In this document: one piece after another, positions 28,027 through 57,587 of the stretch | How positions within the stretch are numbered: the stretch's first letter is position 1 | How the letters are laid out: the number at the start of each line of letters is the position of its first letter | NCBI GenBank assembly: GCA_044892505.1 | Contig: CM097883.1 | Span: 306,714,001 to 306,778,000, forward strand | Origin: Schmidtea nova | Taxonomy: Eukaryota | Length of the DNA stretch: 64,000 nt | Reading direction: 5' to 3' | Made by a program: the position numbers and the translations under genes | The notes under the pieces: model-generated | Databases searched by the model: none | Told to the model about the DNA's origin: nothing | Seen by the model: the letters and a program-made list of their open reading frames with translations, nothing else

Positions 28027-28030
28027 TTAC
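28027..28030. other. Target-site duplication, left copy (TTAC)
   Basis: TTAC directly precedes the left LTR and directly follows the right LTR (57588-57591). Confidence 0.9.
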
Positions 28031-28520
28031 TGCTGGGTTCATGGACGGGTTGGTAAAAATTCAAATGACGGCTAGGGATCTCCCTTCCATGATCATGCAT
28101 AAATAGTCGTAAGTTACACTCGAGCGCCCTTGATTATTTCCCTTGATAACCAAGTTGGTGATGCGCAGGGTGATTAAACAATGAGGGGCAGGTGAGCACT
28201 ATTGCTAGGACTACTCCCCCTTTTTGTTTACGGGTTCACGCGGCCGTAGAAGGACTTACGCAATTATAGTTCTATTGTGTGTGTGAGGTTATGTATTTAC
28301 CATAAAAACAAAAAAAACAAACAAGCAAAACGAAAACTACGAATTTGATAATATTTAAGTCTTTATCGCTACTCCTTTCGTTGGGTGACGGGTAATTTAC
28401 AGTTAATGGTATGAATTATGTAATCGAAGGAAAAATACTTAGGGATTATCAACAACAAAAAAAAAACAAAGACGAGCTAAAATTTAATTAAGTCCACAAT
28501 CTGACATTGCATTCTATCTG

Positions 28521-29156
28521 TCATAGGAATTCCTTGAATATTCCTTCAGGTGGGAACATCTCTGCTAACCACTCGGCTTCCGACATTTCTGCCATCGTGG
28601 TTACTTGTGTCTGCAATTGCTGAGAAAACAGCTTCCTTTGGCGACGGCGCTTGGAGCCGATTCGTTTTCGCTTATTCGGTTTTCCGGCGGGAGTTGGTGC
28701 CGTGGTGGTTTCCACCCGACTCTGCGCTGTTGTTGCCTCGAGTCCATCGGTGTCTGTACTGATTGAGCAGGCCACTTTTTGTTCTCCTACCCAATTCTGG
28801 TAAGTAATGGGTCGGATTTGTGTTTTCAATTCGGACTCGATAAATGAAGTCGTCACCGAATGAAGACATCGGCGCAACTCAATTTTTGTTGCTTCCCATT
28901 CGGTGCGATAATCGTCAGCTGTCCTTTGAGCCCTTTCTGTCCGACTCATTTGCTCCTTCATACGGGCTGGTGCGAACCAGCTGGTCCGTAAATGCTGAAT
29001 CTGAGCTTCTGCCTTGGCTCGTAAGGCTTTCTCTTGGTTTAGCTCCTTCTCCAATGCTCGGCGGATTCTCCACGCCTTGTCCAATTCTCGCTGTTGGCTA
29101 GTTTCCGTCATACTAAATAACAAACCCAATTTATAATGCATCAAATATGTTACCAA
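28521..29156 (-). CDS. LTR-encoded ORF B (coiled coil + basic NLS-like KPNKRKRIGSKRRRQRK); likely start MTETSQ after an acceptor-like ttatttag
   Basis: Intact ORF in both LTRs (also 55126-55761, one T/I difference); GC-richer than its surroundings. Confidence 0.65.
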   Translation of the reverse strand: MVTYLMHYKLGLLFSMTETSQQRELDKAWRIRRALEKELNQEKALRAKAEAQIQHLRTSWFAPARMKEQMSRTERAQRTADDYRTEWEATKIELRRCLHSVTTSFIESELKTQIRPITYQNWVGEQKVACSISTDTDGLEATTAQSRVETTTAPTPAGKPNKRKRIGSKRRRQRKLFSQQLQTQVTTMAEMSEAEWLAEMFPPEGIFKEFL

Positions 29157-29295
29157 GAATTAATATTATCCGTCGAGTGTAAAAATCATATGATTAAATA
29201 AATAGAAATAAATTTAACTAAAACAAACAAAAACACGGATCAACACCATTTAATTTATTGAAATCGTTTAGTTTATAAAAATGTGAATATAATGT

Positions 29296-29796
29296 TTAGT
29301 GGAAAACACTTCGCTTGAGGCCGTGAACGGGAGTAATATGCAACCCGTGATTGACTGGATTTCTTCGGATGTGAGCCATCGAACAGTTTAGTTTGGGGCG
29401 TCCGTGGCACGTTTTCGGTAGGTGATTCGGAATCAACCCGAATTTAAGCAACTTGAGCGGTGAGACATATCCCCAATGGATCACTATCGTTGGATTTCCT
29501 TCGCTGTCTGACACCACTATGATGAACAGAGCTGTCGTCTCCCGGTCTCTTTCGTCCTGAATTTCCCATCCGGGGCCTCCTCGATATACGAGGGTATCCA
29601 ATCCACCGGTCCAAATTGAGAATGGACATTTCTTTCCTAGTTCCCGTCGCCATTTATACATCAACGCATTTAGCGTTCTTAGAAGTTCCGGTGGGAGCGA
29701 CTTCAATTTTTTCTGTTGCGTCCGGATTAGAGGATTTTCGACCCGTGCCACATGACGTTGAGTTGTTAGAAATTCATCCAGTATCGTTGCCTTCAT
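29296..29796 (-). CDS. LTR-encoded ORF A (166 aa, unknown)
   Basis: Intact and identical in both LTRs. The ATG directly follows tttttttccag, a strong 3' splice-site consensus. Confidence 0.6.
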   Translation of the reverse strand: MKATILDEFLTTQRHVARVENPLIRTQQKKLKSLPPELLRTLNALMYKWRRELGKKCPFSIWTGGLDTLVYRGGPGWEIQDERDRETTALFIIVVSDSEGNPTIVIHWGYVSPLKLLKFGLIPNHLPKTCHGRPKLNCSMAHIRRNPVNHGLHITPVHGLKRSVFH

Positions 29797-31303
29797 CTGG
29801 AAAAAAATAATAATGCTAATAAATTTTATTGTGACGAACCCGTAAATTTTGGTGAGACCTGATAAAAAATGCTCGGCTCGTTGATCAATGACAAAGAAAA
29901 TGTGAAAAAGAGGAATAAAAAAATATTTTCCAAACTATTCAATTAACACCGTCGCTATGTACAGCGATCGGAATATTAAAAATTTACCTATTATTACCTG
30001 CGCTATGTACAGCGATCAGGTTACGATTTTATTTATTTAATCAGTAGTGTCGATCCGAATATATCGTTATTTATGTCTAAATTAAACTGTAGTTGGAACG
30101 TCGAAATCGTCTCGGTGTGTCCGGACGTGATTTCGTTCAGCTATGTTGATTCACAAAAATTTGCGTGTATATGAAAAAATCGATCTAGTCGACCTGATAA
30201 TTGATGTTATAGTTTGTTTTCGCCCGTCTGATCGAATGTTAATGTTAACCACTGTCTACAAATCTTACTCGTGTCCTTGTCCCTGCACAACTTTACCGTA
30301 CCGTGAAACTTCCGATAAAATTAAATTAAATAAAGAATACCAATAAAAACTCTGCTCACCATCTTGTGGAACGGTGAAATCCCACATTTACGGCTTGCTC
30401 CCTCGCAGCGTAAGCTACTGAGGAAGTATATTTATTAGATCATAAAATAATGGCATAAGAAAAATAGAGTAATAGTAATAAATTATATTAAATGAAAATA
30501 AAACAAATGGGAATCATGAAACATATCATAAAAATTAATGCAAAATACAATACAACAAAAATTTACTGTTTAAATCCACGATGCAGTGTTCTCCAAAAAT
30601 TTATACAGTATTTATCGTATCAAAGTTGACTATGATAGGTCAGTTCGGTAACTAAGTTGTTAGGTGTGTGTTTTTTTTTATGATTTTTGGATCGGTATTT
30701 ATACTGATCCAGTTGGTCAGATTGACCAATCAGGATCAGGCCGTCCATCAAAGTAATTTTGTTATTTTATTTTAATATAAACCATTTTAAATTTCCGGTT
30801 CAGATTTCTCGCTGGGTGGTCTCGATTTTTTCAAGTAATTAACCAATTAATTGTACTTTTATTTGATTTTATTTGTAATTTTCTTATTTCAGACCCCCAT
30901 ACTGCTCGTTCCCGTGTCAATTTGATTTTCTTCCTTTGCTGGAAATTTAGTAATTATTACTTATTATTTTATTTTGATTTTTAATTTAGGTTTTTTGAAT
31001 GTTTTTTGTGGTTATTATTTGTATTTATTGTTTAAATTAGTACAATATTTTTGTCTTTTTAGACCAATTGGTGGGCCCAACATCACTCGGGGACCCCTAA
31101 AATTGCGTCCCGCAATTAATTATACATATCTACTTATAACATCATACCTAAAAAGTTTTACAGATATACACATAAACACAAAGAAAATCACTTAAGGTGA
31201 TAGAATTTATATACATCATAAGATTTGTCATAGGATAGTTGAATATTATCAGATTATTGTCACAGGATAGTCAAAGGTTCATCAGAAATGTTCACAAAGT
31301 CTA

Positions 31304-31861
31304 TTAGATTCTCTGGCTCGCATTGGGTTGGGTTTGAGTTCTCTCATTGGTTGTAGCTAATTCGTAGTGGGTCTGAATTCGATCTAGATGGTTTCTCATA
31401 CGTCTTTGGGTTCGGTTGTCTCGCCTTGATGTTTGGTTGACGATGGTTTGTTTCTGTTTGAGGATTTTTATCCGGTAGGAGGCAATCAGGATTGTGATTG
31501 CGATGATAGTTACGCTGATTGAGAGGATTATGATGATTGCTATGATCCATTTCTCTTGATATTCTATTTCAGCTTGGGCTAGGCTTTTTATGGGCTCTCT
31601 ACCTTCTTTCAGGGTTTTTCGGGTTTCTTCTAGTTTCAGTTGTTGGTTATCGAAGATTTGTTGGATTTGATGATCTTGATTGTGGGGGTATTTCTGTCGG
31701 AATTCGTTGATTTCTCTAATTACTTCTTCGATTAGTCTGTCTACTTTCTGGTAGATTTTGTCGGGTAGCACTCGTAATTGGGTTTCAGTTAGTTGTAAAT
31801 CTTCTCTCTGTAGGGTAATGGTTATTAATCCTAGGAGTATTGGTATTGCGAGCTTTCTCAT
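31304..31861 (-). CDS. Accessory type-I membrane protein (185 aa)
   Basis: Hydrophobic N-terminus MRKLAIPILLGLITITLQ, helical ectodomain, TM WIIAIIIILSISVTIIAITILIASY and a basic tail. Confidence 0.75.
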   Translation of the reverse strand: MRKLAIPILLGLITITLQREDLQLTETQLRVLPDKIYQKVDRLIEEVIREINEFRQKYPHNQDHQIQQIFDNQQLKLEETRKTLKEGREPIKSLAQAEIEYQEKWIIAIIIILSISVTIIAITILIASYRIKILKQKQTIVNQTSRRDNRTQRRMRNHLDRIQTHYELATTNERTQTQPNASQRI

Positions 31862-31940
31862 TTTCTATCTTTACATAGGAGTCAATACAGCTTGACGCTT
31901 TTTATTTTACATCATCTATTTACAATTGGTTTCCGCTCAT

Positions 31941-32459
31941 TTACACGAGGGTTTCGTTAGGTTCGTGAAAACCTTCGTCTTGAGGTTCCACCTGATTTAT
32001 GGGGAGTGGCATCCATATTACCGTACTCCTCCACATTTCCACTTCCTCTCGGTACGTGTGGGATATCTGGATCTCTTCATCTAATAAGTATTCCAGATAG
32101 TTCGCCTGCTCTGTTAGGGTTTCTATTTGTTTTTCTAGTTCTGCTAATTTTTTCTCTCTCTCTTCTTTCTCTATCATTTCGGTCACTGCTGCTGTGATAC
32201 TTGTTTCCTTTGTGGGTACTGGTTTTTTTGTTAGCTTCTTTCTCAGTTCTTCGTTTTCTTTTGTCAAATTTGTTATGTTCTCTTCATAACTCTGCCTCGT
32301 TTCTTCCAGTCTTTCTTTAGTTCTTTTTAATTCTATTTTCTTCTGGGTAATCACTCCTTGATATCCATTTATGTCTCTTTTCATGTTTTCTTCCTTGTGA
32401 TTCCACATTCCGGTCAGCATACCTTTTAATTGTTCTTGATTGGCTAAATCTTCTCCCAT
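31941..32459 (-). CDS. Accessory coiled-coil protein (172 aa)
   Basis: E/K-rich heptad pattern; same strand and A-rich codon usage as the element. Confidence 0.7.
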   Translation of the reverse strand: MGEDLANQEQLKGMLTGMWNHKEENMKRDINGYQGVITQKKIELKRTKERLEETRQSYEENITNLTKENEELRKKLTKKPVPTKETSITAAVTEMIEKEEREKKLAELEKQIETLTEQANYLEYLLDEEIQISHTYREEVEMWRSTVIWMPLPINQVEPQDEGFHEPNETLV

Positions 32460-32462
32460 TCT

Positions 32463-33002
32463 TTACACTTGGTGAGTTAATTTTTTAATTTTCTTGGCTT
32501 GTTCCCTGATGAATTGTTGTCTTTTCTTACTCCATACTTTATTTGACGCTTCTTGACTGATCTTTTTCCCTAATTCTTCTTTTAATTCATCGATCTCTTT
32601 AAACAGTTTCCAATCATCGCTGTACGCTGTTCGTTCTATTATCTCCCTTGCTTCCTTGTAAGAGTCTTTTGCCTCTTTTTTCCAATATCTTGCTTGTTCT
32701 GTGATTGACTGAATCTTATGGTCTGTTTTTATCTGTTGTCTATCCCTATCCTCTCGTCGCTCTTTCATCATCCCTTTGTAGTATTCGTTTTGTTGTCTTA
32801 GCAGTTTGTAGACTTCTTCTATTTTTTCTCGACTTCTTTGATTCGATTTCTCGGCTTCTCTTAGTGCTTGGGTTTGTCTTTCTAATTCCTCCTGTTTTCG
32901 ATAATAGGCGTGAATCCATATCCCAATCCGCTCCATGTGATTTCTGATCATTTCGTCTTGATGTACGGTTACTTCTTGTAAGGTTACCTCTATATTTCCC
33001 AT
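32463..33002 (-). CDS. Accessory coiled-coil protein (179 aa)
   Basis: E/K/R-rich helical ORF ending 3 nt before the next ORF begins. Confidence 0.7.
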   Translation of the reverse strand: MGNIEVTLQEVTVHQDEMIRNHMERIGIWIHAYYRKQEELERQTQALREAEKSNQRSREKIEEVYKLLRQQNEYYKGMMKERREDRDRQQIKTDHKIQSITEQARYWKKEAKDSYKEAREIIERTAYSDDWKLFKEIDELKEELGKKISQEASNKVWSKKRQQFIREQAKKIKKLTHQV

Positions 33003-33113
33003 TTCTATAATTACAGATAAAAGAATATTTAATCAGTTTTTATTTTTATTGTTTTTGATTATTTGTTATTTCATATTGTTTTATACAGTTTATTTACATG
33101 GTTACTTCCTTCA

Positions 33114-34490
33114 TTACGCCAACCATCCTTTTCTATCTGTTTTCTCATGCCTCTCCATCTCTATGTATAGCGTGTCTGCATATAGTCGCTCCCATAGGTT
33201 TTCTTTCCTTATAAACATTGGTTCTCCTGCTGCTAGTCCGCATTCCGTTGTTGGTTTTTCACTTGTACTCGTATGTTTGTCTGTTTCAAAGAACTTTTCT
33301 ACTGGTTTTCCTATACTTTTGATTCTTATAATGACTCCTACTTTCAAGGGCCATTCTATTAGGTCATCGTATTCTCCTTTACATAACGAGAAGAATATTG
33401 ATACGTGTGTTCCTTGTCCTCTTCCGTCTCCATTTGGGTAGACCTTCAATCTTATTTTAACCCCATTTTTCCATAAATAAAATGGTGGGCTTATTACTGC
33501 TGTTTTCGTCATATTTCTGGCTTCTGCTAGTTTGTCTCTGAAATCTGTTACTTTCCATAGGTAAGGTGCGATTGGTAAGTCCCTTCTTTCGTCAATTTCT
33601 CGTATTAGTTGATTATATTGTATTTTCATTCCTTTTCCTAATTCTTCTATGGCTATTATTTTCTTTTCCATTCTTTCGCGAGTTAGTTCAAACTGCTCTC
33701 TTGTTTCTAGTAGTAAACTCATCATTATCTTATGTGATTCTACTTCTTTTTCTAATTTCTGGATTGTCTGTTCTGTTTCTTTTGTCGTTTCGTTTGTCAT
33801 TTCCACATGCGTTAGTGCTGCTTCTTCCAAGTGTTGTTTCATTGTTTTTCGCGTCCGCTTTTCCTTGCATCCATGCTTGTTATATGGACATTCTCTTGGC
33901 CTTTCGGTACATATTTTCCAATGTTCATGTAACTTTATTTCTTCTGTTATTTCGCAATTGTTTGGACATTTGCTTATATATTGTCTGCATACTTTCTCCT
34001 CTGTTATATTTAAGTGTTCTTCTTCGATTTTTCTCCTTGTTTCTCGAGTTTCACAATACTCGCATGCGATTTCTTCTTCTTTACATTCTTCCTTGTGTTG
34101 TTCTCTCTTCTTTAGAGTTATTGTCTGTTGGCATTTCTCGCATTCGGCTCTCTTTTCCTCGCATTTTTCCATATGGTTTTCCAGATTACTTATTTGTCCT
34201 TGCCATGTACAAGGTGTATTTACGCACTCCGTTGTGGTGCTCATAATTTCTCTTTGGGTTGCTTTGTCCATTCTAGTTTCATCCAACACTATTCTTCCTT
34301 CCTTACATTCTGGGCATGTTGTTATTCCTGTTGCATCTAATTCTTGTATACATTTTGTACATATTCTACATCCACATATCGTTTGTCTGGGTTCTCGCAA
34401 TAAATTATTACATTTTCCGCATGTGAGCCTCTTGCTCCATTTTCTGTTTTCTAATCTCAAGATTTCGATTACCCGTTCATCTCGGTCCAT
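33114..34490 (-). CDS. TRAF-family protein (RING, TRAF zinc fingers, coiled coil, MATH/TRAF-C), intronless, element-encoded
   Basis: RING CGKC...CGCRICTKC...CPEC (Cys in place of the usual His); zinc fingers CxN..C...H...C; MATH motifs YLWKVTDF, SPPFY and VYPNGDGRGQGTHVSIFFSLCKGEYDDLIEWP. Confidence 0.93.
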   Translation of the reverse strand: MDRDERVIEILRLENRKWSKRLTCGKCNNLLREPRQTICGCRICTKCIQELDATGITTCPECKEGRIVLDETRMDKATQREIMSTTTECVNTPCTWQGQISNLENHMEKCEEKRAECEKCQQTITLKKREQHKEECKEEEIACEYCETRETRRKIEEEHLNITEEKVCRQYISKCPNNCEITEEIKLHEHWKICTERPRECPYNKHGCKEKRTRKTMKQHLEEAALTHVEMTNETTKETEQTIQKLEKEVESHKIMMSLLLETREQFELTRERMEKKIIAIEELGKGMKIQYNQLIREIDERRDLPIAPYLWKVTDFRDKLAEARNMTKTAVISPPFYLWKNGVKIRLKVYPNGDGRGQGTHVSIFFSLCKGEYDDLIEWPLKVGVIIRIKSIGKPVEKFFETDKHTSTSEKPTTECGLAAGEPMFIRKENLWERLYADTLYIEMERHEKTDRKGWLA

Positions 34491-34581
34491 TTTCTACAAT
34501 AATATATACATTCGACCTGTCATTTATTTTTGGTTTTCTTGTTTTTATTTTTACATATTTACAGTTTTTCGCTTTATTTAT

Positions 34582-34938
34582 CTATGGCTCATTCGTTGAA
34601 TCTGGTTCCGCTTCGTTGTTTAATCTATTTATTACCCAACTCATCCATCCTTCTTCGGATCCTTCTCTTTCTCCTCGTGTTAAATGGTTTATTTCTATTG
34701 CTTGTCTTTGATTGGTGTTGCTTATCGTTTGATTTTCCCTGGTGAGTTCAGTTATCGCTCTTTGTTGTTCCTCTATTCTGTGTAATTGTTCGAAACAATT
34801 GTTATAACTTTCTGATAGTAACATTTGTTTTTCCGCTAGTTGGTTTTGTAATGAGTTGACTGTTCTTACTAGTAAATCACATTGTGCTTTCCATCTCATA
34901 GCCATAGTTATTTCAGTGGTTTCGTCTTGTTCGGTCAT
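34582..34938 (-). CDS. Accessory coiled-coil protein (118 aa)
   Basis: Heptad pattern; ATG in a TAG-AAA-ATG context. Confidence 0.65.
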   Translation of the reverse strand: MTEQDETTEITMAMRWKAQCDLLVRTVNSLQNQLAEKQMLLSESYNNCFEQLHRIEEQQRAITELTRENQTISNTNQRQAIEINHLTRGEREGSEEGWMSWVINRLNNEAEPDSTNEP

Positions 34939-35063
34939 TTTCTAAATTATATACATCATTTACTTTGCTTTTCTATCTTTTTACAATGTTTATAATATCG
35001 ATACCCATACTATTACGGTAATGCTTTGTTATTTACACTATTATTTACAGTCATAATCCGCCC

Positions 35064-35882: not shown

Positions 35883-36289
35883 TTGTATTTCTTGTATTTC
35901 GGTTTCCTTGTTTGTTTGTGGTTCGTCGCTTGTCTGAACTTGGTATGTCCTCTTCCATTTTCTTTAATTCGACTTTTTCTTTATTCCCTGTTTCTTTACA
36001 GTGGGTTAGGTTACCTTCTTCTCCTTCTGGGTTATGTTTTGTCCAACATATTCCTTTCACTGTCTGATCAAGTCCTGTTAATGTCAGAGTTCTTTCTGTT
36101 TTGGTTAATTCTTTTTCATCGAATTTCAGAATTTCTCCTTTTTGGAATGTCTTGCACTTTTCTATTCCGGGTTGATCTTCTTGGATTACTTTCTCCCATA
36201 TACATATATTTCCTTCTCCGTCCATTTGTATTTCTTGTATTTCGGTTTCCTTGTTTGTTTGTGGTTCGTCGCTTGTCTGAACTTGGTAT
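35596..36289. repeat. 348-bp tandem duplication with a 5-bp deletion (attta) near the junction, causing a frameshift
   Basis: tatgtcct-attta-cttccattttc at 35596 versus tatgtcct-cttccattttc at 35944; the copies are otherwise nearly identical. Confidence 0.9.
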
Positions 36290-47800: not shown

Positions 47801-50800
47801 GTTACTTGTACTGTCGTAGGTAATTCTTGTATTCTTTCGAAAATGTTATCGTCTTTTTCCTTTGTTAGTTCGGTTAATTCTTCTATCATATCGTCGCTGT
47901 CTGTTAAAATTTCGTCCACGTCGTATGGTTGTGGTGGAGTCATTTCTCTATTCCCTCTGGGTGTTGTCTCAGATCGTCTTGAACTTGTCCCTGGCGTTGG
48001 TACTGATTTCATCGGGCTCGGCGTACTTATACTTCCGTGTGGTTTATGGTTTTCTTCTTTACGTTTTAATGGTTGACCTGCTATTGCTTCTACTGTCAAG
48101 GTATTCATGAGATCTAGTTGTGCTGGCGTTATTCCGATTTCCAAACTGTTATCTAATGATCGTCCTTGGTGTTGTAAATGGAATGGTGGTTCGTATCTCA
48201 ATTTCTTTTTAATATCTCGAATTTTTTCTGCTATTCCTACCCACAATTCTTCCTTATCCTTGTTTGGATATATTATTCTTAAATGCACTTTTTGTGGAAT
48301 TTCCTGCGAGAATTCTTGATTTCTCCATTTCCTAATTACGTGGTCTAGTTGTTCCGGGCACCACTCGTTAACTCTTTTATATTCTGCGATTGCCTTTGCC
48401 ACTTTACGCAAGCATGTTATATCTTCTCCATTAACCACGAAAAAATCTGCGAGACCTTTTATTATTTTTCTCTTACCGTGCGCATTAGTTTTTAATAATT
48501 CGACAAATTCCTCCGTTTTTTGCTTTTCCTTTTCTAACCATATGGCCACTGTTTCTGGTCCATCTAGGTCTATTGGCGTGGCTTTCCTTGTCACCATGCA
48601 AACCCTTCTCATTTCCGGTTCGCAGTCATATTCCATTCCTCTTTCATATTCTTCTTCATATTCCCCTTCCTTTGGTACCCAACATTTTCCTTTCTCGTTC
48701 CATTGTTTTTCTACGGGTGTTCGTCTTTGTCTGTTGAGATTGAGTTCTTCTAATACATTTTCCCACTCTGGCCAAATTCGCCAATTTCGATAGATGTCTA
48801 CTATTTGTTGTAATTTGCGCACAACTTCTTTCCGTCGTTCCCGTTCTCTTTTCTCATCTTTAGCAGTTTCTCTGGGTGTATCGTCCATTCTGATAACGTG
48901 GATGGTTTGGTGATTATCCCATATACCGATTTTATATAGTCGTCTCTCATCGTGATCCCATAATACATGTTCGTTATATTGTATGATTATGTCGTCTTCC
49001 CATTCGTCTTCTGGTTCTCTTTGCACTAGTGTCTCGTTGATGACATTTATTAATTCTTTAATGGTGCAATCCGCTACTACTTCAATTTCTTTGGTGTCTT
49101 CATTAGGCAATTCCACTGAAATTTTTAGATCTGTTATTTTCCCTTGTCTGAACATTGTTTTTCCCATTTTTGCGATTAATTTGTCGTGTGAGATTTGTGA
49201 CCATCTCGTATGACTTGTGTCACGTATGCACTCAATACATTGTTTCAATTTCTCGTATTCGCTTCTCATTAACTCCTTTCTATGTTTTTTGACTTGTGGT
49301 ATGATTTGCTCTATCAGGGAATTTAGATTCTTTCGTAAGACTCGTTCTTTCTCGTATTCTAACCGAGGTTTTATTCTCCTTTCAAAGCACGTGTTTGCTT
49401 CCCTTGCAACTTCTTGTAGGTTCTCTTCTTCCTTCTCATCACATATTGATAACAGAGTTATTTCTCCTGGCCATATACCTGTTTCTACTAAGTGCGTTCT
49501 TTTCTTTACGAGTCTATTCTGCGAATAGATGAATTTGTTTTTATATGAGCTCCCTAGTCTATCCTCTACCCATCTGTAGATATCGTCTGTAAATGGAGTT
49601 TTGATCCAGATTCTTGGTGTAGATGTATTTATTATTATTGAGATGGTGTAATTGAGGAGTGGTTCCTCTATTAATTTCCCTACGTATCGATTTAACATGT
49701 CCACTTCCCGATCTTGTAACCATTCTTTGTAGTTCATTTGTAGTAATGCTTTCATGAATTTCCGATATTGTTTCTTGTCCATGAACTCTTCGTTATATAT
49801 TACTTCTAGCGAGTTATCTAGTAATTTCTGGATTTCATCTACTTTTATCTGTGTAGGTTCTGAGGTCTTTATTACTTTTATCTCTTTGTTTTCGTCTTCG
49901 GATTCGTTTAATATGTCTCCTGCTAGGCTACTGATGTCGCTATCTTCTTCCTCATCGGAAAACTCTCTGGCGGTATTTCTTAACATTTTAATATGTGCTA
50001 TTTGGTTCGTTTCTCCTTGTATATTCTTCGTTGGTTCTGGTTCGTTTTTGTCAATCTCTGGTGTTGGTTCCCTCTTGTCCTCTATTACTTCGACTTTTCT
50101 CATTTTCTTCTCCAACTCGTCTATCTCTTTCAAACGTCTTCTTATCATTTTTCCTTTAAATATTCGACTGATTCGGGTTTCGCGACGCACTGGTGGTGGA
50201 ATTTCTTCTGATTCTATTTCTTTGATTCTCATCACATTTCTTTTTGTCTCTGTTACTCCCATGTTTTCCCATATATCCGTTAATTTCAATTTTACTGATG
50301 GTGCATCTCCTATTTGTAAGAACGCTTCTCTGGGCAGTTTCGTTACTCCTGGAATCATCTGGTTTACTTTATTGAATAGTATTTCCACCTTTTCTTTTGC
50401 GTTATATTGGAATCGAAACACATGGTCGTTGGGCATGATTACCATCATTCCTTTTTTCCAAATTTTCCTTCTCTCTTCTTGGTTTATCTTAGTTTCCTCT
50501 TCCTTTTCTACTTCTTTTTCTACTTTCTCATCTTTTTGTACTATTTCTTTTCCACTTTCGTTGTCGGCTGAATTCATTTCTAGTGTGGTTTCTTTTTCGC
50601 GAGTATCTGTTTGGTTTGTTGCTCTTAGCATGTTGATTCTTAGAGGTTGTCGCTCTCTTTCTTGTTGTTTTTGTTCGTCTTCTCTTTGTATTCTTGCCCA
50701 TTCCTGAGCGTGTCGTGCTTGACTTTCTCGATTCAATCGTTCGTTTTCGCTTTCTATTTTTCTCATCATGCTAATTTGTTGTTGGTTGGTTTGCGGATTC

Positions 50801-52302
50801 CCTCTCGTCGTATTGTTTATAAGTTCCGTCAATCTTTGAACTTCTTGCATCAAATGTATTTCTTTGGTGGTAGTTTTGTTCTGATTATTGTTATTATTGG
50901 CTTGTTGGTTTCCATAATCTTGTCGATTTGCAGTATTTGTTTGATTTCCGTAATTTGGTCGGTTTCCGTTGTTCTGCCAATTTCCTCGTTGATTACCTTT
51001 TTGTCCGCAATTCCTTGAGTAGTGACCAGGTCGTCCGCAATTAAAACAGATTATCGTAGAACATCTACTCTCCGAGTGTCCTTTAACTCCACATTTTCCG
51101 CAATTCAAATTTTGATAGCATTCTTGCTGCCAATGTCCCAATTTTCCACATGTTTTACATTGTTTTGTTTGTCCTTGAGGATTGTAATTGTTTTGGTTTC
51201 TAAAGTTTTGCACTTTATTTCCTTCGTTCCTTCGTTGAGGGGGTGGTCGGTTTAATTGTTGCGAATTTGGAATGTGATTGTTGAGATTTACTTCTGGTTC
51301 GGTTTGCGCCGTGTCCATGGCCAAATAAATTCTACCCTCACTTCCTATCATATGCAGTTCGAATCTGTTAGCTGTTTCTAGTGCTTGGTCTAAGGTTTTA
51401 CATCCTTGGCATCCCACTTGTGCTCTTATGTCGGGTCTTCTTAGTCCTCCTATGAAGATAGCTGCCATTAACTCCTCGTTTATTGGACCTCCATCCTTGA
51501 ATACCGATTTTGCTAATTTTTTCAGTTCGCTCGCGTATACCGCATTAGATTCATTCATCTTTTGTTTCCTCATTGAAAATTCTATGAATGCTTCGCTTAG
51601 CACTTTATTTATCCCAAATGTTTGTTGGAAAAAGTCCTTTATCGCTGGCCAGTCTGCAGGTGGATTTGTACCGTTTTTTGCTTCCAAATATAGGTCCAAT
51701 GCGCTATCTTTCAAATATAACTGTATTCTACTTGCTGTTGTCTCAGCTTTCCATTTGCATACTTCCACAAATATGCCAAATTCCTTTAAAAAAATTTCTA
51801 ATTTACTCGCATCTCCGTTAAACGGTTCTCCTGAAAATTTATCCTTTATTTCTTCTCTTGGTTCACCCATTTCAATTCCGCTGTCTTGAGTTATTTTACT
51901 TTCGTTTCCTCTTGTTTCTAGTTCGTTGTTATGTTCGTCTTCTGTTCCACTCGAGCTTGAATCGCTTTCAGTTTCTCTTATTACTACGTTATCTGATATT
52001 ATACTTTCGTTATCACTCTCGTTGGTTTCTACCTCTGGTTCTACCTCGTTTTCTACTTCTTCGATATTATCGTTGTTAGTTTCGTCGCTTTCTATTTCGC
52101 TTGTTTGGTTCTCCTTGGGTTCCGCTTGGTTCTCTTTGTTACTTGAGCTGTTGCTTACTACTGACAATTTATCGTTTTCGATAATTGATTTATCTCTTAT
52201 TATTTTCCTCGCTTTACTCCCTTGTGGGTTTTTGTGGTTATCTTTGCCGGCTTTCTGCTTTTTTGTTGGCTTTATTGCGACACTCTTTGCTCCTTTTCTC
52301 AA
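41872..52302 (-). CDS. gag-pol: Polyprotein part 1 (3476 aa): Gag - Ubl-like - Bcl-2-like - glycoprotein - protease - RT - RNase H - integrase N-terminus
   Basis: Capsid-like PFNGD...FLKEF (~51330-51845); three CCHC knuckles (51007-51160); DTG (44479-44487); YIDD (43261-43272); LATDASGYAAGAVL, TDHQPL and NANADCMSR; HHCC (H..GGH...CLTC). First in-frame ATG at 51870. Confidence 0.96.
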   Translation of the reverse strand: MRKGAKSVAIKPTKKQKAGKDNHKNPQGSKARKIIRDKSIIENDKLSVVSNSSSNKENQAEPKENQTSEIESDETNNDNIEEVENEVEPEVETNESDNESIISDNVVIRETESDSSSSGTEDEHNNELETRGNESKITQDSGIEMGEPREEIKDKFSGEPFNGDASKLEIFLKEFGIFVEVCKWKAETTASRIQLYLKDSALDLYLEAKNGTNPPADWPAIKDFFQQTFGINKVLSEAFIEFSMRKQKMNESNAVYASELKKLAKSVFKDGGPINEELMAAIFIGGLRRPDIRAQVGCQGCKTLDQALETANRFELHMIGSEGRIYLAMDTAQTEPEVNLNNHIPNSQQLNRPPPQRRNEGNKVQNFRNQNNYNPQGQTKQCKTCGKLGHWQQECYQNLNCGKCGVKGHSESRCSTIICFNCGRPGHYSRNCGQKGNQRGNWQNNGNRPNYGNQTNTANRQDYGNQQANNNNNQNKTTTKEIHLMQEVQRLTELINNTTRGNPQTNQQQISMMRKIESENERLNRESQARHAQEWARIQREDEQKQQERERQPLRINMLRATNQTDTREKETTLEMNSADNESGKEIVQKDEKVEKEVEKEEETKINQEERRKIWKKGMMVIMPNDHVFRFQYNAKEKVEILFNKVNQMIPGVTKLPREAFLQIGDAPSVKLKLTDIWENMGVTETKRNVMRIKEIESEEIPPPVRRETRISRIFKGKMIRRRLKEIDELEKKMRKVEVIEDKREPTPEIDKNEPEPTKNIQGETNQIAHIKMLRNTAREFSDEEEDSDISSLAGDILNESEDENKEIKVIKTSEPTQIKVDEIQKLLDNSLEVIYNEEFMDKKQYRKFMKALLQMNYKEWLQDREVDMLNRYVGKLIEEPLLNYTISIIINTSTPRIWIKTPFTDDIYRWVEDRLGSSYKNKFIYSQNRLVKKRTHLVETGIWPGEITLLSICDEKEEENLQEVAREANTCFERRIKPRLEYEKERVLRKNLNSLIEQIIPQVKKHRKELMRSEYEKLKQCIECIRDTSHTRWSQISHDKLIAKMGKTMFRQGKITDLKISVELPNEDTKEIEVVADCTIKELINVINETLVQREPEDEWEDDIIIQYNEHVLWDHDERRLYKIGIWDNHQTIHVIRMDDTPRETAKDEKRERERRKEVVRKLQQIVDIYRNWRIWPEWENVLEELNLNRQRRTPVEKQWNEKGKCWVPKEGEYEEEYERGMEYDCEPEMRRVCMVTRKATPIDLDGPETVAIWLEKEKQKTEEFVELLKTNAHGKRKIIKGLADFFVVNGEDITCLRKVAKAIAEYKRVNEWCPEQLDHVIRKWRNQEFSQEIPQKVHLRIIYPNKDKEELWVGIAEKIRDIKKKLRYEPPFHLQHQGRSLDNSLEIGITPAQLDLMNTLTVEAIAGQPLKRKEENHKPHGSISTPSPMKSVPTPGTSSRRSETTPRGNREMTPPQPYDVDEILTDSDDMIEELTELTKEKDDNIFERIQELPTTVQVTNTGETEVEEEIIIEEVNDLTEDETRGANVENVRLTQEMERWLEERANEPRDVTEETGRATRFVETGTGMDRRPRGRPKTDPANVVIRNKDEKRQDQWEVCLKKLNKIAEIKEKETTPICQGEEWISKTIMEILAIIDPELKKYWRITEISEKAKSLHSAIAPILPEFIKEKTKSNHLDWQGTTTLIKKLTEGAETDNKYVIAIAYNIYNLLTLSRGRPKPTALERHIKNTAKIISKEIEPYVINNGGWETFIKTNQKKTQAKNMKKKFEKILEELGKEQAGTRNAKSSMNLSSIIMMMLIWMISTDSATAFEVFDCDQIKLGEKYSLRGTEQCKDATPVELQKIKKEQWYHVYQEAELIKTMVNECKVQKTRFAFYCGRGHYSAIVMPGTEREPIVLQGEDCEALFKHGEVTTRDKIKIKGKPGMMMQQTYYVAGRITGGEGYCQGETYPMFGTLATNLVVMDTYIVELKSYEAFFEPTTGEMKTLSMCKIDRSMCQTGMSTLVYKPKVNECQLQLLQGAQFDEIQGKTFQEEDDDDKARAKHLKEALENKRQLKPDQREKRIEMRATPTVLITTNQDVGMRFIKGKATLKCSTTVYETNYPGIYVSKQEVPNAKPKIDTMDIKLHLYVNNKMDFLFHRGQASLQKVYYDLINNDCILNREILKTKLAVAITNPDSAMPLLPLREGHFGRVVGEAMYVYICEKTHASLAATTQLKPGTCTNELEIDYKGKVRYVQPVTRIINPPGFEPNPFNCSNAYGPLYQKPDGKWVMFPGRSEVIAPREFELMQLSKDRQFSDVDVSNNGIYSPKDLEAARQNILFPARREALLSNIVTITGGTDYREGPNYELLLSPAHFKKATENMMKAMWGRFLIFGQMMAGILGVILIIQIVRVIITQMLACFDIYKREKRVNWKMVVGFLPFLAKTMVLHGHSKDIHRIKRLLKILAKMKRTDEEVGRKFKKIMNDEQARQQLKKERKGLWERMKGYKTQNDSSDDDDDDDDYKGGQVYKNQAPQYIEKNPADAWKCYAPPPTMYQEPLQGGKNGTMQMMPMTNVYPMIPEDYKMRRCRSVDPQGDTHTIAVMSSNTGPVLTTTIEINGREIEAMIDTGANMSAIDIKWIPQEQRREIERTNVHVIACSKEVVEVAGRWWVKIRHLNTEIDTYVAVIPALSVPCIIGTDLMPALFKEIVIDLGTMRLKDRTGQICAIEAKVTSSKQMIIPARKEKICYVKIDPTIQGDMIFEPSKRFEKRKALPMARGLVNINDDGEIPINVVNFDEEDKIIYENERLGKLTPMMDIELPIEGAEKDKEPTWNIDSELLNEDQRKQLEKLLMEYKDIFAASDLDLGTCDVTLHTIPLTDETPIALRPYKLAEAQKAVAETEVKKMLDAEVIEPSCSPWQFPVVMVKKKDGTQRFCIDYRRLNTVTKRDTYPLPDINEMLLTLQGAAYFTSLDLKSGYWQIKMKEEDKEKTAFTIGRDLYQFRKMPFGLTNAPASFQRCMNFVTHGIKQCMVYIDDLLIYSGTFEQHIQDIRDVFVRLRQWKLKLKPSKCDWAKEKVTFLGHIVSAKGKEPDPRNIDKVKECPVPKTITQIQEFLGLCGYYRKFIKDYAGIAKPIQELVKKDVSFIWGDEQQTAFEKLRDKLITAPILVHPDFKKPFLLATDASGYAAGAVLGQYDDEGKERVIGYYSRTFKKHEKNYSVTEREALAIILAIKHFKYLLWGHIICITTDHQPLVWLGQHKETSSRLMRWAMQLQEYSPDIKFKTGRANANADCMSRLTFPELTDPDVQRICVLIAEDLDFSELKKDQQEDRELGQIIEFLTSRNMEVLKDNKELKEHIGKYQHRYIINKGWLLIQDGEKRLMCLPENRRKEIMIQYHDGKLGGHMSEKKTINRMRQKYYWRTMEEDIKEWIKNCLTCATRKDSGKKWKNPLQPMPIPAEPMTTIAMDVIGPLPESLNGNIYILVITDYLTKFPEAFAM
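44800..46935 (-). other. env: Envelope-like glycoprotein domain within the polyprotein (chuvirus/Jingchuvirales-G-like)
   Basis: Signal-like MNLSSIIMMMLIWMISTDSATA (46870-46935), then FEVFDC...SLRGTEQC, a Cys-rich ectodomain, DCILNREILKTKLAVAITNP...GRVVGEAMYVYIC and a TM at 45100-45195. The motif pattern matches my recollection of chuvirus-type glycoproteins; not confirmed by search. Confidence 0.8.
47040..47510 (-). other. Bcl-2-like helical domain within the polyprotein
   Basis: BH2-like IEPYVINNGGWETF (47047-47090); weaker BH1-like NHLDWQGTTTLI upstream. Confidence 0.55.
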
Positions 52303-52891
52303 CTGGATTACTTTTATATTATCAATTTTCTTGTCCTATCTATTATCGTTTTTCTGATTCTTCTTGTTGCTTGATTGATTTGATTGATTTGTATATCTAA
52401 AATACAAAGGTCCTCAACGATACCTTATTGTTATCGTCGCGCTTTTATTCCCTTTCTTTCGGGATTACTTATTACTGGGTTTTCATTATTTCCCATTCCC
52501 AGATTCCCCTTTATTTTTAGTCTATTTAAATTATCTATAGACTGGTCACAATTATCTATTTATGTCGTAATAATTATCTATGTTTTATCAAATCCATTAC
52601 TTTTCCCACAGTTTCCCAATTTATTGGTCGCTCGAGCGCTCTAATTCCCTGAGTCTTTCTGACTCGTTTATCATTTCTATTCATTATTCTCTGATAGCGA
52701 TCGTTTTACTCATTCTGCCGGTTGCTCCGGTCAGCCCAAATTTTTACTATTCTCCTTGCATGCTTTATTTAAGGTTGCATAATCAGCTTTACTCGCATTT
52801 CTTAACTACTAGTGCGCACTATTCTAAATCTCGTCGACGATTACACTATGGGTCTATATTACTATTTATCCGGATATCTCTATAATCCACT

Positions 52892-53111
52892 ATGGCTCTT
52901 TTGGCCTCAATTTTATATCTCACATGGCTCTATTGGCCTCATTTTACTATCTCAAATGGCTCTATTGGCCTCAATTTAATATCTCACATGGCTCTATTGG
53001 CCTTAATTTAATATCTCACATGGCTCTATTGGCCTTAATTTAATATCTCACATGGCTCTATTGGCCTTAATTTAATATCTCACTGGCTCTATTGGCCTCA
53101 AATTAATCTCT
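52892..53111. repeat. 32-bp tandem repeat x7 in the element 5' leader
   Basis: atggctctattggcct(c/t)aatttaatatctcac at 52892, 52924, 52956, 52988, 53020, 53052 and ~53084. Confidence 0.95.
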
Positions 53112-53155
53112 CCATAACGCCTAGCTAGGTCATTCAATAAGGCTCGTTGGCCTCA

Positions 53156-53270
53156 ACCCTTTTTTTCAAGGGACAAACCGCTAATAACCCTTTGTTTCAA
53201 GGGACAACTCTAATAACCCTTTGTTTCAAGGGACAAATCTCCTAACCCTTTGTTTCAAGGGACAAACCTC
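53156..53270. repeat. ~29-30 bp repeat x4, each with hairpin-forming CCCTT-N6-AAGGG, in the 5' leader
   Basis: aaccctttgtttcaagggaca at ~53156, 53186, 53215 and 53244. Confidence 0.9.
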
Positions 53271-53747
53271 GTATAACTTTACTTAACCGGTTAATCACAA
53301 TTCCCTACTTCGCTAGCGATTAAAATTTCTCAGCTGAGTTATAACTACTTCTATGCGAGCTGACTATGCACCTTTTATTCTCTCAAAATTGTCATTTATC
53401 TCTTTATTCTATCATAACTAATTCCTGATCAGTCTGCTTCAACTTTTTATTTATTTTTCTCTATGCGCGCTTTACTCCATCGAGATTTCCCCATCTTTCT
53501 CCCCAACCACAATATACAAAAAGATCGCGTTGGTCTATTAATGCAGGATGTGGTGATCAATCACATCACAAAAACTTTCCAACATTTGCGATGGGCCCCT
53601 TTCTATATACTTGACTAGGTTGATCAATTGGTACCCCTCAATGGATTCTTATCGGACTACTTTGCAGTAGCTCAAAAATTATTTAAATACAATGATTGTT
53701 CCCATGATTCACCATTCGACATTTTACTAATCAACTCTAAACATTTA

Positions 53748-54251
53748 TTACAAATAAACTATAATTTTTTCATTCACAGTAAAGTTGCACATCGGACACC
53801 GGTCACGCTTGTTGGCACAGTTCTTACAAAAACGGAGATGTCCGCAAGGTAAAAACATAATTTGTATTTCGTTGTTTTCACATATATAGCACTGTCGGTA
53901 TTTTTTCGCTGCTTCTACCCCTTGCGCCCTCCATCGATTGTATGTTGGGGTTAATTGTTGTTCTATTTGTCTGCATCTAATGTTTAGCTCCGCATTCTCT
54001 AGTCGTGCTCGGTACCATTTGTAGCGGGTTTTTATGTCGATTTTACTTGTTCTTTCTGTTATCTTTATTAATTCATCTGTTTCTTCGGTCTGTGTTGTGG
54101 GTTCTTGAAATTCAATTTCTCTAAATCGGTTTATTTTCTTGCCAATTGTTGCTAATGTTTCGTTTTCTGTGTTGAGAAATTCTTCGATTTCTTTCAGTTT
54201 TTCCTCCATTTGCTGAATAAATAATCGTTTTAACTTTGTTGTTTTTATCAT
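53748..54251 (-). CDS. Leader ORF: coiled coil + C-terminal C3HC4 RING (IAP/MDM2/Neuralized type), no BIR seen
   Basis: CYICENNEIQIMFLPCGHLRFCKNCANKRDRCPMCNFTVNEKIIVYL at the extreme C-terminus. Confidence 0.88.
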   Translation of the reverse strand: MIKTTKLKRLFIQQMEEKLKEIEEFLNTENETLATIGKKINRFREIEFQEPTTQTEETDELIKITERTSKIDIKTRYKWYRARLENAELNIRCRQIEQQLTPTYNRWRAQGVEAAKKYRQCYICENNEIQIMFLPCGHLRFCKNCANKRDRCPMCNFTVNEKIIVYL

Positions 54252-54254
54252 TTT

Positions 54255-54604: not shown

Positions 54605-54625
54605 CAAATCCCGGCTGAGCCCCCA
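54605..54625 (-). promoter_or_regulatory. Primer-binding site, tRNA-Pro type
   Basis: TGGGGGCTCAGCCGGGATTTG lies 6 nt inside the 5' LTR. It differs at 2 of 18 positions from the canonical tRNA-Pro PBS TGGGGGCTCGTCCGGGAT. Confidence 0.88.
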
Positions 54626-55125
54626 AATTTATGCTGGGTTCATGGACGGGTTGGTAAAAATTCAAATGACGGCTAGGGATCTCCCATCCATGATCATGCA
54701 TAAATAGTCGTAAGTTACACTCGAGCGCCCTTGATTATTTCCCTTGATAACCAAGTTGGTGATGCGCAGGGTGATTAAACAATGAGGGGCAGGTGAGCAC
54801 TATTGCTAGGACTACTCCCCCTTTTTGTTTACGGGTTCACGCGGCCGTAGAAGGACTTACGCAATTATAGTTCTATTGTGTGTGTGTGTGAGGTTATGTA
54901 TTTACCATAAAAACAAAAAAAACAAACAAGCAAAACGAAAACTACGAATTTGATAATATTTAAGTCTTTATCGCTACTCCTTTCGTTGGGTGACGGGTAA
55001 TTTACAGTTAATGGTATGAATTATGTAATCGAAGGAAAAATACTTAGGGATTATCAACAACAAAAAAAAAACAAAGACGAGCTAAAATTTAATTAAGTCC
55101 ACAATCTGACATTGCATTCTATCTG

Positions 55126-55761
55126 TCATAGGAATTCCTTGAATATTCCTTCAGGTGGGAACATCTCTGCTAACCACTCGGCTTCCGACATTTCTGCCAT
55201 CGTGGTTACTTGTGTCTGCAATTGCTGAGAAAACAGCTTCCTTTGGCGACGGCGCTTGGAGCCGATTCGTTTTCGCTTATTCGGTTTTCCGGCGGGAGTT
55301 GGTGCCGTGGTGGTTTCCACCCGACTCTGCGCTGTTATTGCCTCGAGTCCATCGGTGTCTGTACTGATTGAGCAGGCCACTTTTTGTTCTCCTACCCAAT
55401 TCTGGTAAGTAATGGGTCGGATTTGTGTTTTCAATTCGGACTCGATAAATGAAGTCGTCACCGAATGAAGACATCGGCGCAACTCAATTTTTGTTGCTTC
55501 CCATTCGGTGCGATAATCGTCAGCTGTCCTTTGAGCCCTTTCTGTCCGACTCATTTGCTCCTTCATACGGGCTGGTGCGAACCAGCTGGTCCGTAAATGC
55601 TGAATCTGAGCTTCTGCCTTGGCTCGTAAGGCTTTCTCTTGGTTTAGCTCCTTCTCCAATGCTCGGCGGATTCTCCACGCCTTGTCCAATTCTCGCTGTT
55701 GGCTAGTTTCCGTCATACTAAATAACAAACCCAATTTATAATGCATCAAATATGTTACCAA
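55126..55761 (-). CDS. LTR ORF B, 5' LTR copy
   Basis: Same as 28521-29156. Confidence 0.6.
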   Translation of the reverse strand: MVTYLMHYKLGLLFSMTETSQQRELDKAWRIRRALEKELNQEKALRAKAEAQIQHLRTSWFAPARMKEQMSRTERAQRTADDYRTEWEATKIELRRCLHSVTTSFIESELKTQIRPITYQNWVGEQKVACSISTDTDGLEAITAQSRVETTTAPTPAGKPNKRKRIGSKRRRQRKLFSQQLQTQVTTMAEMSEAEWLAEMFPPEGIFKEFL

Positions 55762-55900
55762 GAATTAATATTATCCGTCGAGTGTAAAAATCATATGATT
55801 AAATAAATAGAAATAAATTTAACTAAAACAAACAAAAACACGGATCAACACCATTTAATTTATTGAAATCGTTTAGTTTATAAAAATGTGAATATAATGT

Positions 55901-56401
55901 TTAGTGGAAAACACTTCGCTTGAGGCCGTGAACGGGAGTAATATGCAACCCGTGATTGACTGGATTTCTTCGGATGTGAGCCATCGAACAGTTTAGTTTG
56001 GGGCGTCCGTGGCACGTTTTCGGTAGGTGATTCGGAATCAACCCGAATTTAAGCAACTTGAGCGGTGAGACATATCCCCAATGGATCACTATCGTTGGAT
56101 TTCCTTCGCTGTCTGACACCACTATGATGAACAGAGCTGTCGTCTCCCGGTCTCTTTCGTCCTGAATTTCCCATCCGGGGCCTCCTCGATATACGAGGGT
56201 ATCCAATCCACCGGTCCAAATTGAGAATGGACATTTCTTTCCTAGTTCCCGTCGCCATTTATACATCAACGCATTTAGCGTTCTTAGAAGTTCCGGTGGG
56301 AGCGACTTCAATTTTTTCTGTTGCGTCCGGATTAGAGGATTTTCGACCCGTGCCACATGACGTTGAGTTGTTAGAAATTCATCCAGTATCGTTGCCTTCA
56401 T
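55901..56401 (-). CDS. LTR ORF A, 5' LTR copy
   Basis: Same as 29296-29796. Confidence 0.55.
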   Translation of the reverse strand: MKATILDEFLTTQRHVARVENPLIRTQQKKLKSLPPELLRTLNALMYKWRRELGKKCPFSIWTGGLDTLVYRGGPGWEIQDERDRETTALFIIVVSDSEGNPTIVIHWGYVSPLKLLKFGLIPNHLPKTCHGRPKLNCSMAHIRRNPVNHGLHITPVHGLKRSVFH

Positions 56402-57587
56402 CTGGAAAAAAATAATAATGCTAATAAATTTTATTGTGACGAACCCGTAAATTTTGGTGAGACCTGATAAAAAATGCTCGGCTCGTTGATCAATGACAAA
56501 AAAATGTGAAAAAGAGGAATAAAAAAATATTTTCCAAACTATTCAATTAACACCGTCGCTATGTACAGCGATCGGAATATTAAAAATTTACCTATTATTA
56601 CCTGCGCTATGTACAGCGATCAGGTTACGATTTTATTTATTTAATCAGTAGTGTCGATCCGAATATATCGTTATTTATGTCTAAATTAAACTGTAGTTGG
56701 AACGTCGAAATCGTCTCGGTGTGTCCGGACGTGATTTCGTTCAGCTATGTTGATTCACAAAAATTTGCGTGTATATGAAAAAATCGATCTAGTCGACCTG
56801 ATAATTGATGTTATAGTTTGTTTTCGCCCGTCTGATCGAATGTTAATGTTAACCACTGTCTACAAATCTTACTCGTGTCCTTGTCCCTGCACAACTTTAC
56901 CGTACCGTGAAACTTCCGATAAAATTAAATTAAATAAAGAATACCAATAAAAACTCTGCTCACCATCTTGTGGAACGGTGAAATCCCACATTTACGGCTT
57001 GCTCCCTCGCAGCGTAAGCTACTGAGGAAGTATATTTATTAGATCATAAAATAATGGCATAAGAAAAATAGAGTTTAAATCCACGATGCAGTGTTCTCCA
57101 AAAATTTATACAGTATTTATCGTATCAAAGTTGACTATGATAGGTCAGTTCGGTAACTAAGTTGTTAGGTGTGTGTTTTTTTTTATGATTTTTGGATCGG
57201 TATTTATACTGATCCAGTTGGTCAGATTGACCAATCAGGATCAGGCCGTCCATCAAAGTAATTTTGTTATTTTATTTTAATATAAACCATTTTAAATTTC
57301 CGGTTCAGATTTCTCGCTGGGTGGTCTCGATTTTTTCAAGTAATTAACCAATTAATTGTACTTTTATTTGATTTTATTTGTAATTTTCTTATTTCAGACC
57401 CCCATACTGCTCGTTCCCGTGTCAATTTGATTTTCTTCCTTTGCTGGAAATTTAGTAATTATTACTTATTATTTTATTTTGATTTTTAATTTAGGTTTTT
57501 TGAATGTTTTTTGTGGTTATTATTTGTATTTATTGTTTAAATTAGTACAATATTTTTGTCTTTTTAGACCAATTGGTGGGCCCAACA

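Follow-up and report, generated by a model that had tools for sequence, protein, structure and literature searches.

In a 64,000-nucleotide stretch of the Schmidtea nova genome (assembly GCA_044892505.1, contig CM097883.1, forward-strand positions 306,714,001 to 306,778,000; hereafter the window, to which all coordinates refer), we find a young and copy-specifically broken insertion from a multicopy, Burro-like Ty3/Gypsy retroelement family. The element spans 28031-57587 on the minus strand (29,557 bp, with TG...CA ends) between the two copies of a target-site duplication (TSD), and it carries a giant polyprotein frame with an envelope, six internal accessory open reading frames (ORFs) and two further ORFs in each long terminal repeat (LTR). 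We consider it quite likely that this Burro-like element works like a complex retrovirus, with a self-cleaved polyprotein and separately processed accessory mRNAs. Its boundaries and priming sites are:

57588..57591: TSD TTAC on the 5′ side of the element
28027..28030: TSD TTAC (as read on the plus strand) on the 3′ side of the element
54632..57587, minus strand: 5′ LTR, 2,956 bp, lacking 99 bp that are present in the 3′ LTR and in the LTRs of other genomic copies (sisters)
28031..31082, minus strand: 3′ LTR, 3,052 bp
54605..54625, minus strand: tRNA-Pro primer-binding site (PBS), 6 nt beyond the LTR; this spacer is shared by all 13 resolved sisters
31083..31104, minus strand: conserved stretch at the position expected of a polypurine tract, before the 3′ LTR; not purine-only, with its motif in 17 of 18 sisters

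The two LTRs differ by 2 mismatches over 2,952 aligned columns and by three indels of 4, 1 and 99 bp, and the PBS is a 21-nt perfect complement to the 3′ end of a host-genome tRNA-Pro(TGG) gene plus CCA. Together with the TSD and the order protease (PR), reverse transcriptase (RT), RNase H and integrase, these features make the element a member of Ty3/Gypsy (Metaviridae). The exact boundaries and the PBS match bear out the paired 3-kb LTRs, TTAC duplication and tRNA-Pro priming of an earlier reading made from the letters of this DNA (the original prediction), as does the finding that all the accessory ORFs, six internal and two per LTR, lie on the minus strand, on which the element interior is 44% A. 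Both the 6-nt LTR-PBS spacer (54626-54631) and the want of a plain polypurine tract (31083-31104) are kept in sisters, a hint that end processing or the priming of the plus strand may be unusual. A long tandem array of tRNA-Pro(TGG) genes, repeating every 308 bp, extends from about 459.61 Mb on one host-genome contig, and the tRNA-Pro end pattern has 906 matches in the genome.

The recent spread of the family can be read from its other copies. The 30-nt LTR-PBS junction has 179 exact occurrences in the genome (reversed control, 0), and among 18 sisters examined at both ends the 13 that were resolved all have 4-bp TSDs, their LTR pairs diverging by 0-0.29%; the remaining five have one end outside the stretches compared. 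The 3′ stretches of 20 sisters are colinear with the window, one of them with a large internal deletion, and of the 150 top-scoring matches to one domain of the tail, 32 sit in stop-free frames of 5,641-5,736 codons (hand count). Purifying selection, seen as low ratios of non-synonymous to synonymous substitution (dN/dS) in sister comparisons, acts on every ORF of the element, and identity over RT-RNase H is 42-55% across the matches listed (at least 120). The window copy carries two lesions. Its main frame runs through 52335-41872 (3,487 codons) to an in-frame stop in the integrase core and then through 41871-35773 (2,032 codons), beyond which the tail, shifted to another frame by a duplication, runs on to 35064:

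35609..36289: 343-bp tandem duplication, frame-shifting and private to this copy

The duplicated region is single copy in all 19 sisters that hold it (20 examined), and none of nine sisters has a stop at the codon corresponding to 41872-41874, one of them having a stop two codons past it. Because of its in-frame stop, this copy is unable to encode a whole integrase. Colinear sisters, long open frames and lesions private to this copy therefore make the layout a property of the family, and this copy a recent and defective member of it. The original prediction of a complete element with a main frame of about 17 kb and 5,600 amino acids (aa) thus holds for the overall structure and for sisters, where about 5,650 codons are open, and fails for this copy with its integrase stop and 343-bp duplication. 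In one sister a 4.5-kb internal deletion runs from the FN3 tail described below into the TRAF gene, yet its LTRs are 0.1% diverged and it has a TSD.

Behind a non-coding leader, the polyprotein opens with an acidic segment that lacks an AUG, followed in turn by gag, some 1,300 aa of cargo, Env, PR-RT-RNase H-integrase, ankyrins and an FN3-like tail:

52336..53747, minus strand: non-coding leader of 1.4 kb that includes tandem repeats of 32 and 29 bp
51871..52326, minus strand: AUG-less start of the main frame, with a candidate AUU in AAA-AUU-G context; dN/dS 0.38
51000..51870, minus strand: Gag capsid region and three CCHC zinc knuckles (Pfam zf-CCHC, E 7e-7); dN/dS 0.05
46966..49158, minus strand: cargo between gag and env; dN/dS 0.06-0.10
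45111..46932, minus strand: Env, with signal-like segment, gB/mononegavirus-type fusion ectodomain and transmembrane helix (Pfam, hydropathy)
41139..44529, minus strand: PR, RT, RNase H and integrase, the core of the last interrupted by the stop (Pfam and catalytic motifs)
39564..40839, minus strand: ankyrin repeats after integrase, in two stretches (Pfam Ank_2, E 2.9e-14); dN/dS 0.13
37095..38862, minus strand: FN3-like cassette 1, with signal-like segment, one domain, hydrophobic segment, three domains and transmembrane helix; dN/dS 0.22
35064..36880, minus strand: FN3-like cassette 2, with three domains and a transmembrane helix, its frame broken in this copy; dN/dS 0.35-0.37

The Env ectodomain matches Pfam Monjiviricetes_fusion (PF24664) at E 1.5e-70 over aa 2075-2416, the protease begins at aa 2603, and Env thus stands in frame between gag and protease, inside the main frame. 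The proposal of a virus-like, envelope-bearing Ty3/Gypsy element whose accessory genes are genuine is upheld. The Gag region has a weak gag match (E 0.016). Within the cargo, a weak ubiquitin-like match lies at about 48856-49158 (Ubiquitin_4, E 0.09) and a weak Bcl-2-like one (a Bcl-xL BH2-like stretch, E 0.1) at 46966-47538, the position expected from Burro; the predicted model of the latter region reached a predicted local distance difference test (pLDDT) score of 51 and gave no match in a fold search. A profile search of the post-protease region gave no dUTPase-like domain; HHpred had been used in the Burro study (PMC6431247). A ribosomal S18 match (E 0.004) was set aside as chance.

How the main frame begins is suggested by its AUG-less segment, which is open for 155-197 codons ahead of the usual first AUG in 19 of 19 copies and starts in all of them with an invariant AAAATTGA; one sister has an AUG earlier than the usual one. 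Indels in this segment come only in multiples of three, whereas the leader has many 1-nt indels, and because of this and its dN/dS of 0.38 we infer that the segment is translated, with AUU probably the simplest reading of the start. A spliced leader joined at the TAG ahead of the frame might also provide the AUG of the polyprotein; we rejected this as the main reading, as that position is TAA in five of 18 sisters and purine-rich sequence precedes it. Further along, a word of the form I/V-x-M-hydrophobic occurs 5 times in the polyprotein against 0.7 in shuffles, the word having been picked post hoc, and is likely to be the cleavage site of the element protease.

The tail consists of seven repeated C-W...C...C domains in two cassettes, each with a signal-like segment and a transmembrane helix. 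A profile of the seven repeats found 35 proteins at E ≤0.001, with fn3 in 14 of the 15 that were scanned, and an Atlas search listed ten matches, all fn3 and all with scores below 0.9. The model of a single repeat (pLDDT 81) has six strands, and FN3 domains fill the top of its fold search, the best at Z 7.5 with a root-mean-square deviation of 2.5 over 72 residues. On these profile and fold matches, the tail repeats are FN3-like. A homologue search with cassette 1 gave no match at E 0.001, which is no sign of novelty in itself.

Eight accessory ORFs accompany the polyprotein, one ahead of its leader, five at the 3′ end and two in the LTR:

53748..54209, minus strand: IAP-type RING ORF with a coiled coil, 153 aa (167 aa from an upstream ATG); dN/dS 0.16
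34582..34938, minus strand: A1, 118 aa, coiled-coil-like; open in 18 of 20 sisters, dN/dS 0.06
33114..34490, minus strand: TRAF, full-length and intronless, 458 aa (RING, zinc fingers, coiled coil, MATH); dN/dS 0.10
32463..33002, minus strand: A3, 179 aa, coiled-coil-like; open in 18 of 20 sisters, dN/dS 0.09
31941..32459, minus strand: A4, 172 aa, coiled-coil-like, starting 3 nt past the A3 stop; open in 19 of 20 sisters, dN/dS 0.10
31304..31861, minus strand: A5, 185 aa, with hydrophobic N-terminus and one transmembrane-like segment (by eye); open in 18 of 20 sisters, dN/dS 0.24
55126..55716 (3′ copy about 28521-29111), minus strand: LTR ORF a, 196 aa, resembling a coiled coil and including the basic stretch KRKR; open in 17 of 18 sisters
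55901..56401 (3′ copy about 29296-29796), minus strand: LTR ORF b, 166 aa; open in 17 of 18 sisters, pairwise dN/dS 0.08-0.34

Of 20 sisters, 18-19 keep each of the five 3′ ORFs open, the RING ORF is open in 18 of 18, and all six internal accessory ORFs have dN/dS of 0.06-0.24. The RING ORF matches Pfam zf-C3HC4_3 (E 2.5e-12) and the RING of cIAP2/XIAP (E 3.5e-11), and the TRAF ORF matches Pfam MATH_2 (E 9.5e-21), with 23-26% identity to animal TRAFs across most of its length; coiled-coil Pfam matches on A1-A5 were set aside as chance. ORF a has a pairwise dN/dS of 0.08-0.16 and no Pfam match, and ORF b has no usable Pfam or Atlas match, itself no sign of novelty. Because each is open in 17 of 18 sisters, with pairwise dN/dS of 0.08-0.34 overall, we regard both LTR ORFs as real genes. 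Mean dN/dS values of 0.84 and 2.56 for them were discarded as an artefact of saturated dS between two LTR types, and the pairwise values were used. These two types share their first 400 and last 230 nt, and their middle 2.4 kb is largely unalignable by blastn (28261-30675 and 54860-57180 in the window), in elements whose interiors are 89-96% alike. Both types retain both ORFs, with dS saturated, so that deeply diverged versions occur within otherwise close elements; this pattern suggests that the two-gene LTR cassette is exchanged as a module.

The same alignments locate candidate signals for expression, beginning with a promoter-like pair within the LTR:

57200..57240, minus strand: CCAAT-like and TATA boxes, at about LTR +350 and +378 (19 of 19 sister LTRs examined)

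Likeness between the LTR types stops about 25 nt past the TATA box, and transcription is predicted to start near LTR +402; with such a start, both LTR genes would therefore lie within the transcript. An acceptor-like site precedes the main frame by about 65 nt in 18 of 18 sisters, and a donor-like site lies about 47 nt past the LTR, after the PBS, in 16 of 18. At the accessory genes, YAG with a T-rich run stands 0-3 nt upstream of seven of the eight ATGs; among other ATGs the figure is 60 of 569 (p 1.6e-6). This context is kept in all sisters for RING, A1, TRAF and A3, and it occurs again before both ORFs of the second LTR type, which does not align to the window there (4 copies). A4, given its start just past A3, may be reached by reinitiation. 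Five 3′ spacers, 627 nt in all, contain the word TGTAHATA 8 times (shuffle mean 0.42), and 22 kb of coding sequence do not contain it at all. Wherever the start was located in a sister, the word is preserved ahead of A1, TRAF, A3 and A5. We take UGUAHAUA to be a Pumilio element that includes the UGUA read by the 3′-end factor CFIm, which would make both of these candidate readers.

Foamy viruses, lentiviruses and mouse mammary tumour virus use alternative acceptors to reach 3′-terminal accessory genes and others inside the LTR, and prime with tRNA. Compared with these complex vertebrate retroviruses, the window element has a Ty3/Gypsy-type Pol, a gB-type Env within the polyprotein and LTR genes that apparently lie downstream of the predicted transcription start. 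In the reading that we favour, transcription would run from near LTR +402 with the two LTR genes inside the transcript, and a polyprotein of about 5,650 aa would begin at the near-cognate AUU. The element protease would cut it at the recurring I/V-x-M-hydrophobic sites and signal peptidase at the internal signal segments, to give Gag, cargo domains, Env, Pol, ankyrin modules and FN3-like surface proteins. The eight accessory ORFs would be reached via splice acceptors immediately ahead of their ATGs, the partner being either the donor just after the PBS or host spliced-leader trans-splicing. TRAF, the IAP-type RING, and the Bcl-2-like and ankyrin modules may then dampen host death and immune signalling, and Env and the FN3 proteins may aid the movement of particles among cells of one animal.

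A possible, although in our view doubtful, alternative is that the accessory genes form an operon resolved by host spliced-leader trans-splicing, in which each spacer would combine the 3′ end of the upstream gene (UGUA) with a splice acceptor to which the leader RNA could be joined. Four of the 3′ spacers measure 79-125 nt, close to the roughly 100-bp operon spacing of the flatworm Macrostomum (PMC8629364), and no donor common to both LTR types precedes the first acceptor. A precedent exists in the Gypsy element Cer1 of C. elegans, which has a spliced, partly SL1-trans-spliced subgenomic mRNA beside its unspliced genomic RNA (PMC3315495); Cer1 makes one spliced product from a transcript of about 8 kb, established by experiment, whereas the window element has eight candidate acceptors inferred from sequence. 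On the other hand, the spacers show no enrichment of AATAAA (7 occurrences, 4.5 on average in shuffles, p 0.14), the donor candidate after the PBS is placed as in retroviruses, and efficient internal cleavage would be expected to compete with full-length genomic RNA.

We consider it unlikely that the family copies itself only within cells, with Env, FN3 proteins and cargo kept for effects on the host cell such as survival, adhesion or mutualism. Such a life would agree with the protection of planarian stem cells reported for the IAP-like cargo of Burro1 (Lee et al. 2026, whose work on Burro1 BIR-RING cargo is summarised in PMC13465017), and the literature compared, as far as it was available, reports no particles. 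Env, however, has a dN/dS of 0.05 among dispersed copies (4 sisters), with signal segment, ectodomain and anchor all kept, which is constraint expected if Env serves the element's own spread.

Several observations weigh against the complex-retrovirus reading, whichever way its mRNAs are made. Splicing, the AUU start and particles are predictions from DNA sequence, and neither transcript, protein nor particle was seen; four sequence runs made up of contigs, which covered all 30 bins of 28031-48000, gave no splice joints open to interpretation. Sister comparisons are also mutually non-independent. The YAG and TGTAHATA motifs were both selected after inspection of the sequence, and two of the eight accessory starts were taken as the second ATG of their frame. 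Strict YAG is kept in only 2 of 19 sisters for A4 and 3 of 19 for A5 (AG in 18 and 19 of 19), and A4 is without TGTAHATA, so that not every ORF fits the plan. Upstream of ORF b the two LTR types have no donor in common, and a GTAAGT within the last 240 nt of the LTR is lost in 10 of 18 sisters. This LTR-end GTAAGT was rejected as a donor, as the site is not conserved and none of the four matches to a gapped spliced-retrocopy pattern is element-like. As regards the proteins, no BIR domain was found by Pfam in any scanned element ORF, the Bcl-2-like, ubiquitin-like and dUTPase-like assignments are weak or absent, the FN3 fold match at Z 7.5 carries the tool's warning of a possibly common arrangement, and the second hydrophobic segment of each FN3 cassette leaves the membrane topology ambiguous.

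We give next to no credence to the interior being a mis-joined mosaic or a nest of several elements and host genes, as the stop, the duplication and the very mixed domain content of the window copy might suggest, because colinearity extends across the FN3 tail in 19 of the 20 sisters compared at their 3′ side (the other has an internal deletion), natural single frames of about 5,650 codons exist, and near-identical LTRs and a TSD flank the whole; the mining of sister copies that the original prediction had proposed, with its 179 exact LTR-PBS junctions, refutes such a mosaic.

The closest published descriptions are those of Burro. Arkhipova and Yushenova (2019; PMC6431247) reported an ORF of 4,873-5,140 aa in which an in-frame env separates gag from pol, together with ankyrins and TRAF/IAP/BCL2 cargo, called the in-frame env of Burro/GYPSM1 a first case and proposed integrated proviruses; BURRO1 expression is under PIWI control (PMC8532177). 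With Burro1-4/GYPSM1 of Schmidtea mediterranea and a Burro-like element of Dugesia tigrina (PMC6431247), the window element shares a size of about 30 kb, multi-kb LTRs, a giant ORF that holds gag and three CCHC knuckles, an env in frame between cargo and protease, the order PR-RT-RNase H-integrase, ankyrins, TRAF and RING cargo, and accessory ORFs. Compared by published description, it is thus Burro-like in size, LTRs, polyprotein, in-frame env and ankyrin plus TRAF/MATH cargo, in agreement with the relationship originally suspected. It is not Burro1/GYPSM1 in the strict sense, because there is no BIR in the scanned ORFs and no MATH in the main frame. The frame is about 5,650 aa rather than 4,873-5,140, TRAF forms a complete gene of its own, located downstream of the polyprotein, whereas in Burro MATH lies inside the polyprotein or in an upstream ORF, and the RING, unlike that of Burro, comes without BIR. 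The FN3 cassettes, LTR genes, acceptor and UGUAHAUA signals and AUG-less start are absent from the part of the PMC6431247 Burro description available to us.

The element also has the features of GAG-ENV-POL gB-type errantiviruses, with a gB-type Env between gag and a Ty3/Gypsy pol and many intact copies. Six such elements of S. mediterranea, Smed_errantivirus_1-6 (Chary and Hayashi, PMC13524379), share its gene order and Env type, and its Env ectodomain is closest by eye to that of Smed_errantivirus_5 (about 40% over about 190 positions, hand count). As far as available, the main text of that paper makes no mention of ankyrins or Burro, its rows for these six elements hold no tRNA type or LTR coordinates, and accessory genes do not come up in the text compared. 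The core layout, giant size, in-frame envelope and anti-death cargo are therefore already known for Burro, and the view that the architecture is largely new gives way before the published Burro (PMC6431247) and gB-type (PMC13524379) elements. A described family of the same architecture, which the original prediction had named as the end of its novelty, exists for the core layout and, within the literature searched, not for the FN3 tail, LTR genes and expression signals. Our search, with subscription papers mostly outside it, found no prior report of seven FN3-like domains in two membrane cassettes ending a polyprotein, of a swappable two-gene LTR cassette, or of pre-ATG acceptor-like sites, UGUAHAUA spacers and a conserved AUG-less start.

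Other repeats surround the element in the window. At 57900-58963 the element is flanked by a different repeat, about 1.06 kb long, of which at least 39 further copies are 85-96% identical. A frame of 266 codons within this repeat matches ankyrin weakly, and the ankyrin-like ORF at 58153-58953 was rejected as part of the element. Two decayed fragments of a smaller Gypsy-like element, 69% alike, lie at 1515-4600 (minus strand) and 13546-15288 (plus strand), the former with matches to DUF7041 gag, protease and RT. A tandem array with a 47-bp unit and a 180-bp higher-order period occupies 15478-16007, outside the element.

The account of Burro in PMC6431247 left open how a dozen proteins are expressed and what the unannotated half of the polyprotein is. 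To these questions our analysis adds an identity for the polyprotein tail and a concrete expression plan, and a family with many open copies offers definite predictions: a transcription start, eight acceptors, a candidate donor, the AUU start, protease sites and an FN3 surface module. More speculatively, and we think improbably when taken as a whole, Burro-type elements would be complex invertebrate retroviruses, with a spliced-leader operon for eight accessory genes, a polyprotein throttled by its non-AUG start, a swappable two-gene cassette in the transcribed LTR, and captured FN3 proteins acting as attachment or decoy factors beside a gB-type fusogen. If particles exist, the family would represent a complex, enveloped, retrovirus-like agent in a model of stem cells and regeneration, in which Burro1 reportedly affects stem-cell survival.

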